From NCBI GenBank assembly GCA_025057155.1, contig JANWYD010000016.1, positions 54,056 to 118,055 of the forward strand: DNA of 64,000 nt, in the 5' to 3' direction. Of the stretch, positions 5,704 through 55,950 are shown in pieces (within the stretch, counting starts at the first letter, position 1; each line of letters starts with the position of its first letter). The position numbers and the translations under genes are program-made. The DNA comes from Chloroflexaceae bacterium. GTDB taxonomy: Bacteria; Chloroflexota; Chloroflexia; Chloroflexales; Chloroflexaceae. The notes beneath the pieces are model-generated. The model saw only the letters and a program-made list of their open reading frames with translations, made no database searches and had not been told where the DNA came from.

Positions 5704-5879
5704 GGATGACGATGGTCCCGAAGACGCGGCGCTCCTGGTAAGACGGGTCGTACGGGTTATCGTCGGGGAAGGGCAAACGCCCGGCCAGATCGGGGCCTGA
5801 CCGGTTAGCATAATACGTGCTGGGGATTACCGCAGCGCGCGCAGATAAACGGAGCGGATGGACCCACCGACGCCCCTTT

Positions 5880-6053
5880 CTCAGGTGTAGGGTTTTCCGG
5901 CGCATCCTCGCGTCACATTCGCCATCCGGGGCATTGGGCCCCCCCCCGCCCCCCTCTCCACCTACGGTGGAGAGGGGGGCGGGGGGGTGAGGATCGGAAG
6001 CGCATTGGAATGCCGAAAACCCCTTCTCGCTCGAAAAACCCTGCACCTGAGAG
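5880..6053 (+). repeat. Family-1 dispersed element (~172 bp, terminal inverted repeats plus central hairpin), copy A
   Basis: The ends are CTCAGGTGTAGGGTTTTCCGG and CGAAAAACCCTGCACCTGAGAG. The centre is a 22-bp perfect stem (cccccccgcccccctctccacc / ggtggagaggggggcggggggg) with loop tacg. Confidence 0.85.
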
Positions 6054-6195
6054 CTGAAGCCCCTCCCGCGTCTCCGGAGAGGACGCACGTGGCAGATGCG
6101 CACGCTGCCTGGCAGAGCTTGCCGCGACAGGGGTTGTATGCTACGATGACGCACTGTTCCACAATAGCCGCATGACGGTAACCCTCCTATTGCCA

Positions 6196-12127: not shown

Positions 12128-12326
12128 GCTGCTCGCCGGCGTGGGAGATTAAGCCAGCAGAGCGTTTTCCCCATCCCAACGCGCTGACCGCTTCGCCCCT
12201 GCACGTCCGTGTGACGCCTGCGGGGCGTCGGGCGTCGCGGAGCGAACCGGCAGGGGCGACCGGCCGGTCGCCCCTGCCGAAGGCCCAGCTCGCGCGTCAT
12301 GCATAGGTCCCGAAGGGGGGACTCTT

Positions 12327-12497
12327 CTCAGGTGTAGGATTTTCCGGCGCATCCTCGCGCCGCATGCGCCATCCGGGGCATTGGGACGCCCAACTTCCCC
12401 CTCTCCCGCGCGCGAGAGAGTGGAGGGGGGATGAGGACCGTAAGCGCAGTGGAATGCCGAAAACCCCTGCTCGCCCAAAAAATCCTACGCCTGAGAG
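12327..12497 (+). repeat. Family-1 element, copy B
   Basis: It has the same termini (ctcaggtgtaggattttccgg ... aaaaaatcctacgcctgagag) and the internal blocks catccggggcattgg and gtggaatgccgaaaacccc. Confidence 0.85.
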
Positions 12498-31945: not shown

Positions 31946-32139
31946 GCAGACTCCTTTCGTGTTCTGGCGCAACACTACGCACTGACACTCCGGCGGCGGC
32001 GCCTTAAGGAAGTTGAGAACCGGGGGATATGATTATTATACACTAATGTGTATTTCTTGTCAATAATAGTTGAGGTTTCAAACAGAGCCCGAGCAACGTC
32101 CGCCTCCGGCGGCGGGAGGGGGACGGCGGCGCCCGACCT

Positions 32140-32312
32140 CTCAGGTGCAGGGTTGTTCGCGGGAGAAGGGGTTTTCGGCATTCCACTGCGCTTGCGATCC
32201 TCACCCCCCCGCCCCCCCTCTTCCGCGAGCGGGAGAGGGGGGCGCTGGGCGTTCCAATGCCCCGGATGGCGCATGCGACGCGAGGATGGGCCGGAAAACC
32301 CTGCACCTGAGA
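32140..32312 (-). repeat. Family-1 element, copy C (reverse orientation)
   Basis: The ends are ctcaggtgcagggttgttcgcggg and ggccggaaaaccctgcacctgaga. The central stem is ccctcttccgc/gcgggagaggg. Confidence 0.85.
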
Positions 32313-32342
32313 ACGGCGCCCGGCGGGGATTACCGTTATGCT

Positions 32343-35570: not shown

Positions 35571-35792
35571 TGATGTTTCTTCACTCAGTGATGAGAAAAT
35601 TTAGAAACTACTACAACAACTTACATAATAAGATCCCATTGTCCAGAGTCATTTTAAATGTTCAAAAACATCTGTTACATTGTGTAGTTTCTAAGATATG
35701 CACTTACTTAGTACTACTAATTATTGCAATGATTTATCATCTCGTATTTCTGATTAATTCTTTGATTAAGAATCTTGTTACTCATTCAGCCA
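35571..35792. promoter_or_regulatory. AT-rich island upstream of the large secreted-protein gene
   Basis: About 220 bp of clearly AT-rich sequence in a GC-rich context. It contains an 11-bp perfect inverted repeat ttagaaactac (35601-35611) / gtagtttctaa (35684-35694). Confidence 0.5.
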
Positions 35793-35819
35793 TACCGGGC
35801 CACGTCGGAGGAGAGACAG

Positions 35820-38800
35820 ATGAGGGTGCGCCGCACAAACCAACCAACCAGCGCCTTCGCACTCCGGATCTTGATCCTGCTCGGTGTTGCGCTGGCACTG
35901 CTGGTTCCGGCGTATGTTCAGGCGAAACGCATCGAATTTGCGCCGCATGCGCAGGCGGCGCCGGCGGAGTGGAGCCAGTTGGGATATACACCCCAGCGTA
36001 CTGGCTATGTGCCGACAACCCTTGAGGCCGTAAGCCGGGTGCGATGGATCTGGAACGGGCCAATCAACGGCGGCGACGCTGGCCCGGCGAGTAACCACCT
36101 GGCCCTGCCGGAGGGCGTGCAGCCGGTCGCCGGGGGCGGGAGTCTCTACCTGGGCCATAGCGACGGCACCGTGCGGGCGCTCGCGGAAACCGACGGGCGC
36201 GAGGTCTGGATCACCGATCTGACCGCCAGCCAGGGTATCACCAATACGCTGGCCTACGACGCGGAAACCAACAGCGTCTATGCGGGCACGATGGGGGGAC
36301 GCGTGTATCGGCTGAGCGCTTCCAACGGCGTGGTGAGCGGATTCGTCGATCTCGGCGGTCAGATCCTCATGGCCCCCCTCCTGGTCGCTAATCACATCTA
36401 TATCGGTTCAACCAACGGCTACTTCTATGCGTTAGACAAGAGCACGCTCCGGCAGGTCTGGAGCTATGACGCAGGCGCCGCGCTCCACGGCTCGCCGGCA
36501 TATTCCGCCAACCAGGGCGGGACGATTATCATACTGGCAGAAGATCGGTCCGTACATGCGCTGCGGCAGAGCGATGGCGCCCGGCTGTGGCGCACCGTCG
36601 TCAACGGCGCCGTCAATCCCTTGACAAACTCGGTATTCGTCAGCACCTACCCGGTCGTTTCCGATGTGAATAACGTTGTGATTGTGCGGTCCTTCTTCGA
36701 TTGGAACCTGACCTGGCAGCCGAGCGGCGGGGCGCCTGCCTCAATCAGCGATATTCGCAGCTTCCTCACGGCCAATCCGAGCTTCCAGTCCTTTTTTGTG
36801 CTCGATCTTGTCACCGGGTTGCCCCGGTATGTGGCGCCGGTGATGGGAGGGGCGATGGGTAATGGCGGCATCTACTACTCGCCGCCCCCGCAGGCAGTGG
36901 TGCGCCGGCTGGACGATGGGAGCGAGGTGGCCTACCTCCTCTGGCGCAACCGCCAGTCCTGTGGCGGCGTCTGTGATGGGCGCGAGGATACGACGCTCGG
37001 AGAGATGGATCTTACTACCGGCGCGATCCGCTTCGTGCAGGATTACAAGAACCAGGGCAGCATCCGTGTGCCTACCGATGAGCAGGGTGTGCTGGCGATG
37101 GCGGGCGATAGCATGTTCCATGCCCACTGGATGACCCTCGGCGGTGTGCGGATCACCGACCGTTCGGCGAGCCTGGGCGCCACCTATGCCAATCCCATTC
37201 GCACTCTGGAACTGGCCCCGGTGGTGAATACGCTCGCCTCCGAGGCCTGCCCGGAACGTGATAGCATCCGGCGATACTGCCCCTCCGGTATGCGTGTCCC
37301 GGAGGAAAGTTATGTCAATGATCCTGGTTACTATGTTTACTACTATAACCAAAAAGTTTACGATCTCTACTGGCGACCGCCGGTGCGCAGCGTGATCATC
37401 AATAACGGCGCTATCTACTGGCGTACTGCGGACGGCGCGATTGTAGCCCTCCAGACCGGCGCGTATACGCCAGCGCCGTCTCCTACAGGAACCAGCACGT
37501 TTACCCCCACGCCCAGCAGCACTCCTGGGCCCTCCAACACGCCTACCGGCGCCCCGCCGCCCTCCAATACGCCCACCAGCGCCCCGTCGCCCTCCAATAC
37601 GCCCACCAGCGCCCCGCCGCCCTCCAATACGCCCACCGGCGCCCCGTCGCCCTCCAATACGCCCACCGGCGCCCCGCCGCCCTCCAATACGCCCACCGGC
37701 GCCCCGCCGCCCTCCAATACGCCCACCGGCGCCCCGCCGCCCTCCAACACGTCTACTCCAACCCGCACTGCCACGCCCACACTGGCCGCAGCTCCGGCCA
37801 ATTATGCTCTCGCCTTCGCGGGCGCCAATCAGGCCAGCGGCCCCCCGATCGCCGGACTCACCGGCAGTTGGACCGTTGAACTCTGGGCGCGGCCGGCCAC
37901 CGATGCCCAGAACGCCATCATCGTCGCCATTGCCAACGACGCCAGCGGCTGGTCGCTCGAACTCAACGGCGGGCGTCCCACGCTCTGGCTCGCCGGCCCC
38001 GGCGGGGCATGGCGCTCGGTTCAGCATCCGACCCCTCTTGCCGCCAATACCTGGCATCACCTCGCCGCAACCTATGACACTGCGACCGGTGTCGCCCGCA
38101 TCTTTGCAAACGGCGCCGCCGGTCCAGCGGCAACCATCGGGCAGGTGAGCGCGGGGCCGGCGCTCAATCTCGGAGGCTTCGCGCCCTATCCGTTCTTCAA
38201 TGGCCAGATTGACGAACTGCGCCTGTCAGGCGGAGTGCGCTACAGCGCCAGTTTCACGCCACCCGGCGCCGCGCTGCCGGTGGACGCCGCCACCAGGGCC
38301 CTCTTCAGCTTCAACGAAGGCAGCGGTCAGGTCACCCGCGACCGCTCCGGCAATGGCTACACCTTGACCCTTGGCCGTTCGACCAGCGTCGAACCCTCTG
38401 ACCCGACCTGGGTCACTTCAACCGCTCCAACGTCGGAGGGCGCGCCGTCGCCCACCAGCGCCCCCACGCCCTCCGCCACCCGCACCGCCACGCCCACCGG
38501 CGCCCCCGCGCCCTCCGCCACCCGCACCGCCACGCCCACCGGCGCCCCCGCGCCCTCCGCCACGCCCTCCGCCACCCGCACCGCCACGCCCACTGCTTCG
38601 CCGACCCGAACCGCGACCGCCATCAGCACACCGACGGTCACGCCGCCAGCGGTGAGTGACAGGATCTTCGCCGACGATTTTGAGACAGGCTCATTCAGCG
38701 CCTGGAGCGCCGTCACCAGCGATGGCGGCGACCTCGCCGTCAGCGGCGCTGCCGCCCTCAACGGGGCGTTCGGGATGGCCGCGACGATCAACGACAACAG

Positions 38801-39296
38801 GGCGATCTACGTCACCGATACCACTCCCGCCGCCGAACCGCGCTATCGCGTCCGGTTCTACCTCGACCCCAATAGCGCCACGATGACAAATGGCGACGCC
38901 TTCTTTGTGCTAATCGGCTATTCTGGCGCCGCAACGCCGGTATTCCGAGTGGAGTTGCGCCGCTCAAACAACGCCTACCAGATCCGCGCCTCGCTGAGCA
39001 ATGATGCCTCAACCTGGACGAATAGCGGATGGTATACCATCAGCGACGACCCGCATTTCGTCGAGATCGACTGGCAGGCAGCGACGACCGCCGGCGCGAA
39101 CAACGGCAGGATGACCCTCTGGATCGATGGCCAGCAACAGGCCAGTCTGACAACAATCGACAACGACACCTTGCGCGTCGAACAGATCCGGTTGGGGGCC
39201 GTCGCTGGAATCGACAACGGCACTCGTGGCGTATTCTTCTTCGACACCTTCGAGTCGCGCCGCCAGACCTATATCGGCCCGGTTGTCGCCCGATAG
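35820..39296 (+). CDS. large secreted multidomain protein: PQQ/BamB-like beta-propeller, Pro-rich repeat linker, LamG (concanavalin-like) domain, second linker and C-terminal domain
   Basis: Signal peptide ILILLGVALALLVPAYVQA after a GGAGGAG SD. Propeller repeats include DGTVRAL..DGREVW and NGYFYALD. (PSNTPTGAPP)n follows, and LamG-like WHHLAATYD...GQIDELRLS. Confidence 0.8.
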   Translation: MRVRRTNQPTSAFALRILILLGVALALLVPAYVQAKRIEFAPHAQAAPAEWSQLGYTPQRTGYVPTTLEAVSRVRWIWNGPINGGDAGPASNHLALPEGVQPVAGGGSLYLGHSDGTVRALAETDGREVWITDLTASQGITNTLAYDAETNSVYAGTMGGRVYRLSASNGVVSGFVDLGGQILMAPLLVANHIYIGSTNGYFYALDKSTLRQVWSYDAGAALHGSPAYSANQGGTIIILAEDRSVHALRQSDGARLWRTVVNGAVNPLTNSVFVSTYPVVSDVNNVVIVRSFFDWNLTWQPSGGAPASISDIRSFLTANPSFQSFFVLDLVTGLPRYVAPVMGGAMGNGGIYYSPPPQAVVRRLDDGSEVAYLLWRNRQSCGGVCDGREDTTLGEMDLTTGAIRFVQDYKNQGSIRVPTDEQGVLAMAGDSMFHAHWMTLGGVRITDRSASLGATYANPIRTLELAPVVNTLASEACPERDSIRRYCPSGMRVPEESYVNDPGYYVYYYNQKVYDLYWRPPVRSVIINNGAIYWRTADGAIVALQTGAYTPAPSPTGTSTFTPTPSSTPGPSNTPTGAPPPSNTPTSAPSPSNTPTSAPPPSNTPTGAPSPSNTPTGAPPPSNTPTGAPPPSNTPTGAPPPSNTSTPTRTATPTLAAAPANYALAFAGANQASGPPIAGLTGSWTVELWARPATDAQNAIIVAIANDASGWSLELNGGRPTLWLAGPGGAWRSVQHPTPLAANTWHHLAATYDTATGVARIFANGAAGPAATIGQVSAGPALNLGGFAPYPFFNGQIDELRLSGGVRYSASFTPPGAALPVDAATRALFSFNEGSGQVTRDRSGNGYTLTLGRSTSVEPSDPTWVTSTAPTSEGAPSPTSAPTPSATRTATPTGAPAPSATRTATPTGAPAPSATPSATRTATPTASPTRTATAISTPTVTPPAVSDRIFADDFETGSFSAWSAVTSDGGDLAVSGAAALNGAFGMAATINDNRAIYVTDTTPAAEPRYRVRFYLDPNSATMTNGDAFFVLIGYSGAATPVFRVELRRSNNAYQIRASLSNDASTWTNSGWYTISDDPHFVEIDWQAATTAGANNGRMTLWIDGQQQASLTTIDNDTLRVEQIRLGAVAGIDNGTRGVFFFDTFESRRQTYIGPVVAR
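37530..37750 (+). repeat. 30-bp in-frame tandem repeat (7 full units plus a partial one) encoding PSNTPT(G/S)AP(P/S)
   Basis: The unit ccctccaatacgcccaccggcgccccgccg repeats head to tail with single-base variants. Confidence 0.9.
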
Positions 39297-45203: not shown

Positions 45204-45227
45204 AAATAGTCTGCAAAGTCCCGACGT

Positions 45228-45341
45228 TGCCCCCCCTCCCAGCCTCCCCCCGTTGGGGGGAGGCGCCGGGCGCCCTCCCCCAGCGGGGGAGGGTTGGGGA
45301 GGGGGTGGGAGTTCAGCGAAAGACTTTGTTTACAGACTAAT
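45228..45341 (-). repeat. Family-2 element (reverse orientation)
   Basis: The hairpins cctcccccc gttg gggggagg and ccctccccc agcg ggggaggg are followed by cgaaagactttgtttacagactaat. Confidence 0.75.
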
Positions 45342-45796
45342 AAATCGCGCCTGTACGGGCTGAATCCGTTCGCCAGCGCGGACGGCAGCGTCCACCTGCG
45401 TGGAGGCCAGGCGATTCGCCCGCCAGAGGCGACCTCAGCTTCGTAACTGAGCGTCCTGATGCCCCCAACGGACTATCTGAGTCCATGGATGCGCCACAAA
45501 ACCCTGCTCCTGAGAGGGGTCAGGCACGAAGCAGATTGACGCGCGACAGGATAAAACAGTCATTATTATGCACGATCGAGGGTCAGGATGCAATGCGCCC
45601 GAGGCGGGCGCGGGCGCCGCCAGCGGGAGCGGGGCTGGTATTGACAGCGTGAGAGCCGGCATCTCGCGCCGCCTGCGCCCTTCGATGGGGTGAGGGGAGG
45701 AACGCGCCCTGTGGGGGATCGTGCTGATGGGCGGGATGAATGAGGGGAAATATCAAAATGGTTGCCACGATGAATTTCACGTGAAGGGAACGACTG

Positions 45797-45912: not shown

Positions 45913-46168
45913 AAGTCGTTACAACGACACCTCCCCCATCCGCCAATGCGCCGCCCGGGGAAGGGCCGCCTATGGTTAAGAAATAAAGCCGGTATAGCCC
46001 GCGCAGGTCGTTATCATGCCCCGGCTCCGAGGAATCTCAAGACGAGCCGCTGCAAAATCTCTTCTATTTGTAATTTGCCATGGGCCTTCGGAATATGCTA
46101 TATCTTCATTGCGGCCGCGTTCATAGCAGTGATTCCGGAATGGTGCAGCCTTCCCGGCTCCTCCCCCT

Positions 46169-46338
46169 CTCAGGCGCAGGGTTTTTTGGGCGAGCAGGAG
46201 TTTTCGGCATTCCAATGCGCTTACGGTCCTCACACCCTGCCCCCCTCTCCCTGAGCGGGAGAGGGGGGAGTTAGGCGTCCCGATGCCCTGGATGGAGCAT
46301 GCGACGCGAGGATGTGCCGGGAAACCTTACACCTGAGA
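46169..46338 (-). repeat. Family-1 element, copy D
   Basis: The left end is ctcaggcgcagggttttttgggcgagcagg, the stem cccccctctccc tgagc gggagagggggg, and the right end gggaaaccttacacctgaga. Confidence 0.85.
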
Positions 46339-46399
46339 AGGCCCCTCTCCGCGGGCCGGGGCGTGGGACAACCCGGTTTCCCCACACCCCCCACGGCGC

Positions 46400-49813: not shown

Positions 49814-49901
49814 GGGGGAAACCGGGTTTGCCCGGTTTCCCCCCCCTCCCAACCTCCCCCCAACGGAGGGAGGCGCCGAACGCCCTCCCCCGGCGGGGGC
49901 T

Positions 49902-50072
49902 CTCAGGCGCAGGGTTTTTTGGGCGAGCAGGGGTTTTCGGCATTCCAATGCGCTTACGGTCCTCACCCCCCTGCCCCACTCTCCCTGAGCGGGAGAAGGG
50001 GGAGCTGGGCGTCCCGATGCCCCGGACGGCGCATGCGACAAGAGGATGTCCGGAAAACCTCATACCTGAGAG
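49902..50072 (-). repeat. Family-1 element, copy E (closest relative of copy D)
   Basis: It shares ctcaggcgcagggttttttgggcgagcagg.gttttcggcattccaatgcgcttacggtcctcac and tccctgagcgggaga with copy D. Confidence 0.85.
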
Positions 50073-51912: not shown

Positions 51913-51975
51913 AGGGGAGAGCATTCCAGGAGCAATAGGTTTGCTCCGCTCGGCACGCCCCTCTCCGAACCTCTT

Positions 51976-52147
51976 CTCAGGTATAGGGTCTTTCGGGCGA
52001 GCAGGGGTTTTCGGCATTCCAATATGCTTACGATCTTCACCCCCCCGCCCCCCGCTCCCGCGCGCGGGAGCGGGGGGCGCTGGGCGTCCCGATGCCCCGG
52101 ATGGCGCATGCTCGCGTCGCAGGCGCCGGAAAACCCTACACCTGAGA
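51976..52147 (-). repeat. Family-1 element, copy F
   Basis: The central perfect palindrome is gccccccgctcccgcg/cgcgggagcggggggc, with the typical termini. Confidence 0.85.
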
Positions 52148-52250
52148 ACTCCCACCCTCCCCCGCCGGGGGCAGGAGCCAGGACCTCGCTCTCCCGGCGG
52201 CTACGTTACCCGCACGTACCGCGCGTCCCGAACGCTGTTCCGCTTTCACC

Positions 52251-54126: not shown

Positions 54127-54222
54127 GACTAATTCGTTTGTAAACAACGTTTTTCGCTATACCCTCGCCCCCTCCCCAACCCTTCCCCGGCGGGGGAGGG
54201 CGCCTGCCTCCTCCCCCCCGTA
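54127..54222 (+). repeat. Family-2 element directly abutting family-1 copy G
   Basis: The sequence is gactaattcgtttgtaaacaacgtttttcgc...ccctccccaacccttccccggcgggggagggcgcc. Confidence 0.7.
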
Positions 54223-54230
54223 GCGAGGTT

Positions 54231-54403
54231 CTCAGGTGGAGAGTTTTCCGGCGCATCCTCGGCTCGCATGCGCCATCCGGGGCATCGGGACGCCCAGCGC
54301 CCCCCGCTCCTGCGCGCGGGAGCGGGGGGCAGGGGGGTGAGGACCGTAAGCGCATGGGAATGCCGACAACCCCTGCTCGCTCGAAAAACCCCACACCTGA
54401 GAG
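54231..54403 (+). repeat. Family-1 element, copy G
   Basis: The left end is ctcaggtggagagttttccggcgcatcctcgg, the stem ccccccgctcc tgcgcgc gggagcgggggg, and the right end cgaaaaaccccacacctgagag. Confidence 0.85.
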
Positions 54404-55854: not shown

Positions 55855-55950
55855 GCCTCTCCACTCGGCATTGGAGGTTGTTCCTCACCCTCCCCCCGGC
55901 CCCCTCCCTCTCCACCTGCGGTGGAGAGGGAGGGGGCGCCGAGCGCAGCG
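55855..55950 (-). repeat. internal fragment of a family-1 element (no termini)
   Basis: tcggcattggagg...ccccctccctctccacc tgc ggtggagagggaggggg, lying between the regulator and dhaM. Confidence 0.55.

Follow-up and report, generated by a model that had tools for sequence, protein, structure and literature searches.

Why should the centre of a short repeat scattered between genes remain a paired hairpin in copy after copy, when the paired bases themselves change from one copy to the next? This question is raised by a stretch of 64,000 nucleotides from a Chloroflexaceae genome (positions 54056-118055 of contig C77 in the assembly that we call G000; hereafter the window). An earlier note, made from the letters of the window, had described in it seven full copies of an element of about 172 bp, and had taken the changing but still paired stem as a sign of selection on structure, either of an RNA or of a DNA cruciform. 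With a repeat finder and a MAFFT alignment we recovered the same seven full copies at the same places, three on the + and four on the - strand, their mean column identity being 77%, flanks included. These copies and two related features of the window are as follows.

5878-6053, + strand: MITE copy A, 176 bp, with terminal inverted repeats (TIRs) at 5878-5898 and 6033-6053
5944-5984, no strand: central palindrome of copy A, perfect 19-bp arms CCCCGCCCCCCTCTCCACC and GGTGGAGAGGGGGGCGGGG, loop TAC
12325-12497, + strand: MITE copy B, 173 bp; target-site duplication (TSD) GGGGGGAC(C)T left and right, differing by a 1-nt indel
32138-32313, - strand: MITE copy D, 176 bp; TSD GCCGGGCGCCG / GTCGGGCGCCG, 10 of 11 positions identical
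45446-45515, - strand: solo left terminus CTCTCAGGAGCAGGGTTTTGTGGCGCATCC..., an nhmmer match to model positions 3-71
46167-46339, - strand: MITE copy E, 173 bp, amid a nest of other repeats; TSD with 9 of 11 positions identical
49900-50072, - strand: MITE copy F, 173 bp; TSD no longer recognisable
51974-52148, - strand: MITE copy G, 175 bp, between convergent genes; TSD GAGGGTGGGAG / GAGGTTCGGAG, 9 of 11 positions identical
54229-54403, + strand: MITE copy C, 175 bp, central stem of the GCTCC/GGAGC variant; TSD no longer recognisable
55855-55950, no strand: stand-alone hairpin outside the element, CCCTCTCCACC TGC GGTGGAGAGGG, similar to the MITE centre and used as an insertion target

The element is non-coding DNA of 173-177 bp, with no ORF within it; its palindrome is framed by conserved arms and, at the ends, by TIRs of 21 bp (TTCTCAGGTGTAGGGTTTTCC on the left, GGAAAACCCTACACCTGAGAR on the right), whose positions 1-19 are conserved in more than 90% of copies. 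Termini and arms proved to be as first described, except that the true start lies two bases before the proposed CTCAGG, at TTCTCAGG; for the analysis of TSDs the element was taken as TTCTCAGGTG...CACCTGAGAR. In copy A the duplication occupies 5867-5877 (CCGACGCCCCT) and 6054-6064 (CTGAAGCCCCT), identical at 9 of 11 positions, and the palindrome has an extended form, in which CCCCG stands in place of the usual 5' CAACT and complements the 3' CGGGG. Between copy D and the end of the gene next to it there are 28 nt. The partial copy placed near 45497-45520 is real, as the nhmmer match to the solo left terminus attests, whereas the supposed fragment at 55855-55950 gave no nhmmer match: its hairpin alone aligns to the element, and it belongs to a separate, dispersed hairpin family. 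Repeats of another kind, two long arrays of 30-nt and 12/18-nt units, lie at 37449-38640 of the window and encode Pro/Thr/Ser-rich linkers in an ORF of 1173 aa (35775-39296).

A profile HMM built from the seven window copies was run with nhmmer over the whole assembly (5.13 Mb, 189 contigs, 65% GC) and gave 161 non-overlapping matches, 121 of full length and about 40 partial. The copies share a mean pairwise identity of 0.886 (about 89%) and diverge from their consensus by 7%. Gene calls for the statistics on position and orientation were made roughly, by an ORF filter based on GC3 that yields 3223 genes and 76% coding sequence, and according to which the window copies are intergenic, as had been claimed, and so clearly are 97 of the 121 across the genome, while 23 copies overlap ORFs of this rough call. 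There was no bias in the orientation of copies relative to neighbouring genes (29 same, 24 opposite). At C44:32570-32885 the element forms a rearranged or nested cluster, in which one left half and two right halves meet, with the centre duplicated, at the 3' side of the central hairpin.

Three of eight genomes of the same genus (G005, G006 and G007) contain the element at full length and 85-95% identity, and the other members of the genus carry pieces or variants of the element only. One such variant, of 250 bp (L005 1501-1750, in G004:C33), has a further long palindrome, GGGGGGTATGTTGTCGGTGTTGCGAT...ATCGCAACGCCGACAACATACCCCCC, occupying the central hairpin. Two genomes from another family of the order (G027 and G033) contain a diverged relative with ends CTCA[AC]GTGTAGAGTTTT. 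In G006, perfect TSDs flank 11 of 20 sampled copies, which look younger than those studied here.

That the copies are insertions follows from their 11-bp TSDs, which the earlier note had missed, and from their empty sites; it had itself proposed a search for both in related strains. Among 115 copies, 29 have a perfect 11-bp duplication and 82 one with at most three mismatches, against about 4.5% for randomly re-paired flanks, and duplications at other lengths or offsets fail. Five of the seven window copies still show theirs. In order to find uninterrupted sites, we joined the flanks of 49 well-preserved insertions; 18 of these 49 reconstructed sites have paralogous empty counterparts, namely repeats of other families in the same genome that are uninterrupted and match across the junction, with as many as 90 matches and identity reaching 100% over 51 bp. 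Five genomes of the genus show no copy in the spacers orthologous to those of A and G. Copy G is missing from the orthologous spacer in G007, G005 and G008 and was undetected in G001 and G003, and in G007 and G005 this spacer measures 42-45 bp compared with 327 bp here. No base-perfect orthologous empty site could be aligned because spacers within the genus are too diverged, so that the orthologous comparison shows absence of the element and much shorter spacers.

The spacer of copy G offers a side view of how such regions change. In G007 and G005 (loci L037 and L039, compared with 51913-52250 of the window) the same convergent gene pair is separated by one hairpin of 42-45 bp, GGGAGGGC-TTCG-GCCCTCCC, and in four other genomes, this one included, the spacer of that pair is 89-327 bp long and holds unrelated repeat hairpins. 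The intergenic hairpin content of the genus turns over very fast, and the element explains much of this turnover of spacers in this Chloroflexaceae genus.

The sites chosen by the element are GC-rich, and most insertions are in other GC-rich palindromic repeats. The duplicated 11-mer falls within a predicted hairpin arm at 38 of the 65 sites reconstructed, and the TSDs are G-rich at their first three positions and C/G-rich at the last. The hairpin family to which 55855-55950 belongs, CTCTCCACC-N3-GGTGGAGAG, is dispersed in 19 copies outside the element. A separate, multi-hairpin family of GC repeats (for example CCTCCCCC-N3-5-GGGGGAGG) has 217 matches in the genome, three of its members lying at 45227-45289, 49837-49899 and 54164-54226 of the window; it adjoins several copies of the element and is a favoured insertion target, the duplication GGGTTGGGGAG recurring. 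The stand-alone hairpin at 55855-55950, CCCTCTCCACC-TGC-GGTGGAGAGGG with its GGGGAGGGCGAGGAC tail, resembles the central module of the element together with its 3' neighbour, which suggests that the centre was captured from the family of this stand-alone hairpin, or the reverse. The central hairpin alone finds matches in many genera of the family, and this module is therefore an independent and widespread palindrome.

The source of the transposition activity was sought through the ends of the element. In G007, two extra TIR matches led to a truncated insertion sequence (IS) of 1036 bp with MITE ends, CTCTCAGGTGTAGGGTTTTT...AAAACCCTACACCTGAGG (locus L014), which is flanked by an 11-bp TSD (GAGGGGGGCAG), is inserted in the 3' arm of the central hairpin of a MITE and carries a truncated transposase gene. 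The same locus contains a three-level nest, since the right terminus of the truncated IS, itself inside a MITE, is occupied by a MITE-like element some 290 bp long whose ends are ACTCTGTTGGTTAA / TTAACCAACAGAGT (L014 2230-2518, in G007:C102). A search of 61 related genomes with the truncated G007 protein identified intact relatives, among them an IS of 1375 bp bounded by the exact MITE TIR CTCTCAGGTGTAGGGTTTTT in an Oscillochloris sp. MAG (G014, L019 844-2218). Further genera contain ISs of 1.32-1.37 kb with ends CTYTC-NN-GGGTAG(R)GTTTTT, several of them assembled as contigs of the length of an IS. What MITE and IS have in common is limited to about 20 terminal bases (ends of 18-20 nt), and the 11-bp TSD is common to the MITE and the truncated IS of L014.

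The cognate IS is about 1.37 kb long and its transposase has 411 aa (ORF of L018). This protein scores 31 bits against DDE_Tnp_1 (PF01609), above the cut-off of 23, and its translated ORF can be read to contain the signature Y-GL-R-AWI-E-ASYKDA-K (WYGLRAWIEASYKDAK), the YREK signature of the IS4 family being Y-(2)-R-(3)-E-(6)-K around the catalytic E. The best NCBIfam model is IS4 (NF033591), with 98.5 bits, below its curated cut-off of 152, and the protein is a diverged IS4 member or comes from an unmodelled subgroup. More than 5000 homologues are present in public data, typically on contigs of about 1.37 kb. A TSD of 9-13 bp is expected in the IS4, IS231, IS10 and IS50 groups, and the 11-bp duplication fits the IS4 family. 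The partner IS thus has the features of this family with the exception of the curated NF033591 score, and the element has every defining feature of a bacterial MITE that sequence can test.

No such partner was recovered from the genome under study. Self-megablast revealed no multi-copy IS, TIR pairs 0.3-6 kb apart enclosed no gene and marked neighbouring MITEs only, and tblastn over the 189-contig draft found of the cognate transposase one relic of 43% identity (C167:66647-67162). Because the cognate transposase was not found here, the copies in this genome are most likely immobile fossils. The same transposase search gave no match in G005 or G006. The relic found by tblastn is what is left, at C167:66479-67165, of a second IS4-like transposase gene; a copy of the element cuts it off at its ADRGLY motif, and its downstream half is gone. 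The sole PF01609 profile match of the genome was rejected as a partner, for it is a pseudogene of ISAs1 type whose ends differ (CAGGGCTTGAGCAAAG); C102:150-1500 (L013) contains an ISAs1-like IS that is bounded by CAGGGCTTGAGCAAAG / CTTTGCTTAAGCCCTG and has an in-frame TAG in its transposase frame.

The shared ends and the shared 11-bp TSD point to mobilisation in trans. In the mechanism that we propose, the TIRs would be bound and cleaved by the DDE transposase of an IS4-family IS of about 1.37 kb; this enzyme, supplied in trans, would cut the element out and paste it in, and staggered cuts 11 bp apart would give rise to the 11-bp duplication. Most insertions would go into arms of intergenic, GC-rich palindromic repeats, and the GC palindrome at the centre of the element is of one kind with the stand-alone hairpins that are targeted. 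The suggestion that the element, if mobile, is non-autonomous is fully borne out by its TIRs, its 11-bp TSDs, its empty sites and a cognate IS4-family IS that is present in relatives and was not found here. The earlier note had also counted a match to a known IS or MITE against its reading; the element does match in kind, as a MITE of an IS4-family IS, and we found no published description of this particular family.

It remains to account for the hairpin. The centre of the element is a GC palindrome of 12-19 bp, and copies can be oriented by their asymmetric arms. RNAalifold returned a nearly empty consensus for an alignment of 115 copies because indels in G runs misalign the arms, and the arms were instead analysed copy by copy, anchored on the loop. 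Perfect stems of at least 11 bp are present in 52 of 110 copies, compared with 26.7 (maximum 43 in 2000 runs) in simulations in which a perfect stem decayed at the flank divergence of each copy, and 27 of these 52 perfect stems differ from the consensus. Over 12 pairs in 77 copies of the main class there are 62 one-sided and 23 two-sided changes; all 23 of the latter are Watson-Crick, between them they affect 10 pair positions, and most are confined to a single copy. The 20-bp helix that the TIRs could form served as an internal control, with 240 one-sided and 12 two-sided Watson-Crick changes, eight of the 12 at one polymorphic pair whose two sides are not associated (Fisher p = 0.40), so that the TIR helix shows no compensation. 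Pairing that is kept while sequence changes is therefore genuine and particular to the centre of the element, and what had been noticed in the window copies holds genome-wide.

The nature of these changes is informative. Many loops occur in both of their reverse-complement forms, which in the frame of the element are CTCG (22 copies) and CGAG (10), GTA (6) and TAC (9), GCTCA (8) and TGAGC (1), CTTG (3) and CAAG (2), and, more rarely, ATA (2) and TAT (1), and CACG (2) and CGTG (1); in G006 and G007 likewise TAC (8) is found beside GTA (5), and TAT (6) beside ATA (3). A flank tree was made from the columns outside the hairpin; on it, loop orientation is independent of descent (10 changes, 9.0 for shuffled labels), whereas apex type, CCACC or CCCG, is clustered (4 changes versus 16.9). 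The tree therefore carries signal, and loop flips recur. In six independent cases, copy A included, the 5' arm has been extended, the usual unpaired CAACT being replaced by 4-5 bases that complement the 3' arm of the same copy; here the forms are CCCCG with CGGGG, CCCCA with TGGGG, and CCGCG with CGCGG (3' variant GCGCGG), and in G006 and G007 CCCTG with CAGGG. Three copies of this genome (C22:89599-89726, C44:94742-94876 and C33:126218-126362) have lost the palindrome cleanly, by deletion between short G/C runs, with both TIRs intact. Among the listed stems, a hand count gave about 14 G.T and about 10 C.A mismatches, with no strand-specific tolerance of G.U-type mismatches.

These patterns are what one arm copied from the other would be expected to leave behind. 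In our proposal the palindrome would stay paired through intrastrand template switching during replication or repair (quasi-palindrome correction), a process that would flip the loop, turn single changes into compensated pairs and extend the stem. It is documented that a single template switch can make several compensatory changes at once, extend the stem and invert the loop (PMC8794818). We infer it from patterns among paralogous copies rather than from orthologous ancestral and derived states. As a joint reading, it is highly probable that the element is a MITE of an IS4-family IS in which hairpin pairing comes from intrastrand template switching; for the narrower claim that template switching is the main cause of the compensation our preference is slight, the balance tilting just in its favour.

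The explanation that competes most directly with template switching is that natural selection keeps the hairpin, either for transposition, among master copies, or for a role in the host at individual loci, as a hairpin for the 3' end or stability of an RNA or as a substitute for the terminator-like hairpin in which the element had landed. It would account for pairing beyond the neutral expectation with all double changes Watson-Crick, for an apex type that marks a subfamily as variation among master copies would, and for landings in intergenic hairpins at gene ends in relatives, such as GGGAGGGC-TTCG-GCCCTCCC of G007 and G005. Nevertheless, selection on fixed neutral insertions cannot raise double mutants to 23 when, on a rough estimate at 7% divergence, 1-2 or so are expected, and loop flips and replacements of 4-5 bases that match the other arm of the same copy are unlike compensation by point mutation. 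Copies without the hairpin persist, orientation towards genes is even, and on neither strand is the stem followed by a T-run, for which last reason we also rejected an intrinsic terminator. We consider selection rather unlikely as the explanation of the hairpin, bearing in mind that it and template switching can coexist. One observation is odd for a purely mutational process: the compensated GCTCC/GGAGC variant is found in nine copies scattered over the flank tree. Exchange between copies, or more than one master copy, may lie behind this recurrence; an origin of the variant by gene conversion from the stand-alone hairpins was rejected, as it has no copy outside the element.

Were the copies instead a family of genes for structured non-coding RNAs, or of cis-regulatory RNAs, about 170 nt long, with the TIRs as closing helix and the hairpin as functional core, the compensated changes in the central stem and the folding of both strands, far better than shuffled sequences (z = -8.5 and -9.4), would be as expected. 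Equal folding of both strands is also a property of any inverted-repeat DNA, and the putative closing helix is the very one in which compensation fails to appear. C.A mismatches are about as frequent as G.T, orientation with respect to genes is unbiased, compensation in the central stem is accompanied by loop flips, and the TSDs and empty sites identify the copies as insertions. A search against Rfam, which the earlier note had advised, gave no family at gathering score in the 64 kb, and at an E-value threshold it gave generic hairpin matches only, to eukaryotic miRNA precursor models, on both strands and far below cut-off. An RNA family is accordingly very improbable. Even less credible, to the point of being nearly dismissed, is a REP/BIME-type repeat spread by a RAYT (an IS200/IS605-like Y1 transposase) in place of a DDE-type MITE: the central palindrome does resemble many stand-alone GC palindromes of the genome, but the genome has no Y1_Tnp (PF01797) gene, Y1 transposition does not make the long TIRs and 11-bp TSDs seen here, and the ends equal those of a DDE IS. 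Template switching within a MITE thus remains our preferred reading. Loop flips, extensions templated by the copy's own arm, clean palindrome deletions, a TIR "stem" without compensation and the absence of orientation bias together argue for a mutational process at the level of DNA and not of RNA. Of the original claim of selection on structure, the part that stands is pairing beyond neutral decay; nothing points to an RNA, and the changes are better seen as the footprint of a mutational process in DNA.

A more far-reaching idea, which we offer tentatively as possible rather than probable, is that the central palindrome is more than a passenger and copies the preferred target of the element, a GC hairpin arm, so that each insertion would plant a new landing pad for the IS/MITE family and the copies would record template switching; the IS that sits inside a MITE hairpin in G007 is in line with it. 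If this were true, at least four species, each with approximately 120 neutral copies in its genome, would offer a natural record of intrastrand template switching in many replicates, in which loop flip-flop, one-step compensation and stem growth would make its rate and rules measurable in a bacterial chromosome.

Some consequences reach beyond this genus. For annotation, about 160 loci per genome are removed from the pool of candidate structured RNAs. "Compensatory" base-pair changes, the standard covariation criterion, are in this case not evidence of selection on RNA structure, as a DNA palindrome in dispersed, apparently functionless copies yields compensation together with loop inversions and templated stem extension. 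This calls for caution in covariation-based RNA discovery in repeat-rich, GC-rich genomes, and the family could be used as a test set for models of template-switch mutation.

A literature search found no papers on MITEs in Chloroflexi/Chloroflexota, and we know of no bacterial MITE with both an 11-bp TSD and a flip-flopping central palindrome. The closest systems appear to be the MIC231 and other IS231-derived mobile insertion cassettes and the IS4-family MITEs reportedly described in the Bacillus cereus group by Mahillon and colleagues. Like these, the element studied here is non-autonomous, shares only the ends of an IS4-family IS, would be mobilised in trans and has a TSD within their range of 10-12 bp. 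IS231 prefers structured targets flanked by GC (GGG-N5-CCC), to be compared with the TSDs here, G-rich at the first three positions and C/G-rich at the last. The two differ in host, Bacillota there and Chloroflexota here, and in ends and transposase, which are unrelated beyond the level of the family; the cassettes carry a passenger gene where this element has a long GC palindrome, and the copy number here, about 120, is far higher.

Other bacterial MITEs, such as Correia in Neisseria, RUP in Streptococcus pneumoniae, ERIC and Nezha/Chunjie, are 100-300 bp long, are present in tens to hundreds of copies and form long hairpins when transcribed, and their partner IS is often absent from the same genome. 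They resemble the present element in having TIRs, a TSD of fixed length and intergenic positions, and differ from it in their TA or other short TSDs and in belonging to other IS families (IS630 and others). With REP/BIME sequences, palindromes tagged by GTAG/CGTC (PMC3733652), the stand-alone GC palindromes and the centre of the MITE have in common that they are short, dispersed, extragenic palindromes; here the genome lacks a RAYT and the MITE has TIRs and TSDs. The hairpin itself finds its counterpart in template switching and quasi-palindrome correction (Ripley model; PMC8794818), with which it shares multi-base compensation, stem extension and fully inverted loops. Monttinen and Loytynoja (2022) infer template switches in rRNA and miRNA genes along species trees (PMC8794818), whereas the events proposed here would be recorded in some 120 paralogues, probably neutral, that are scattered over a single genome.
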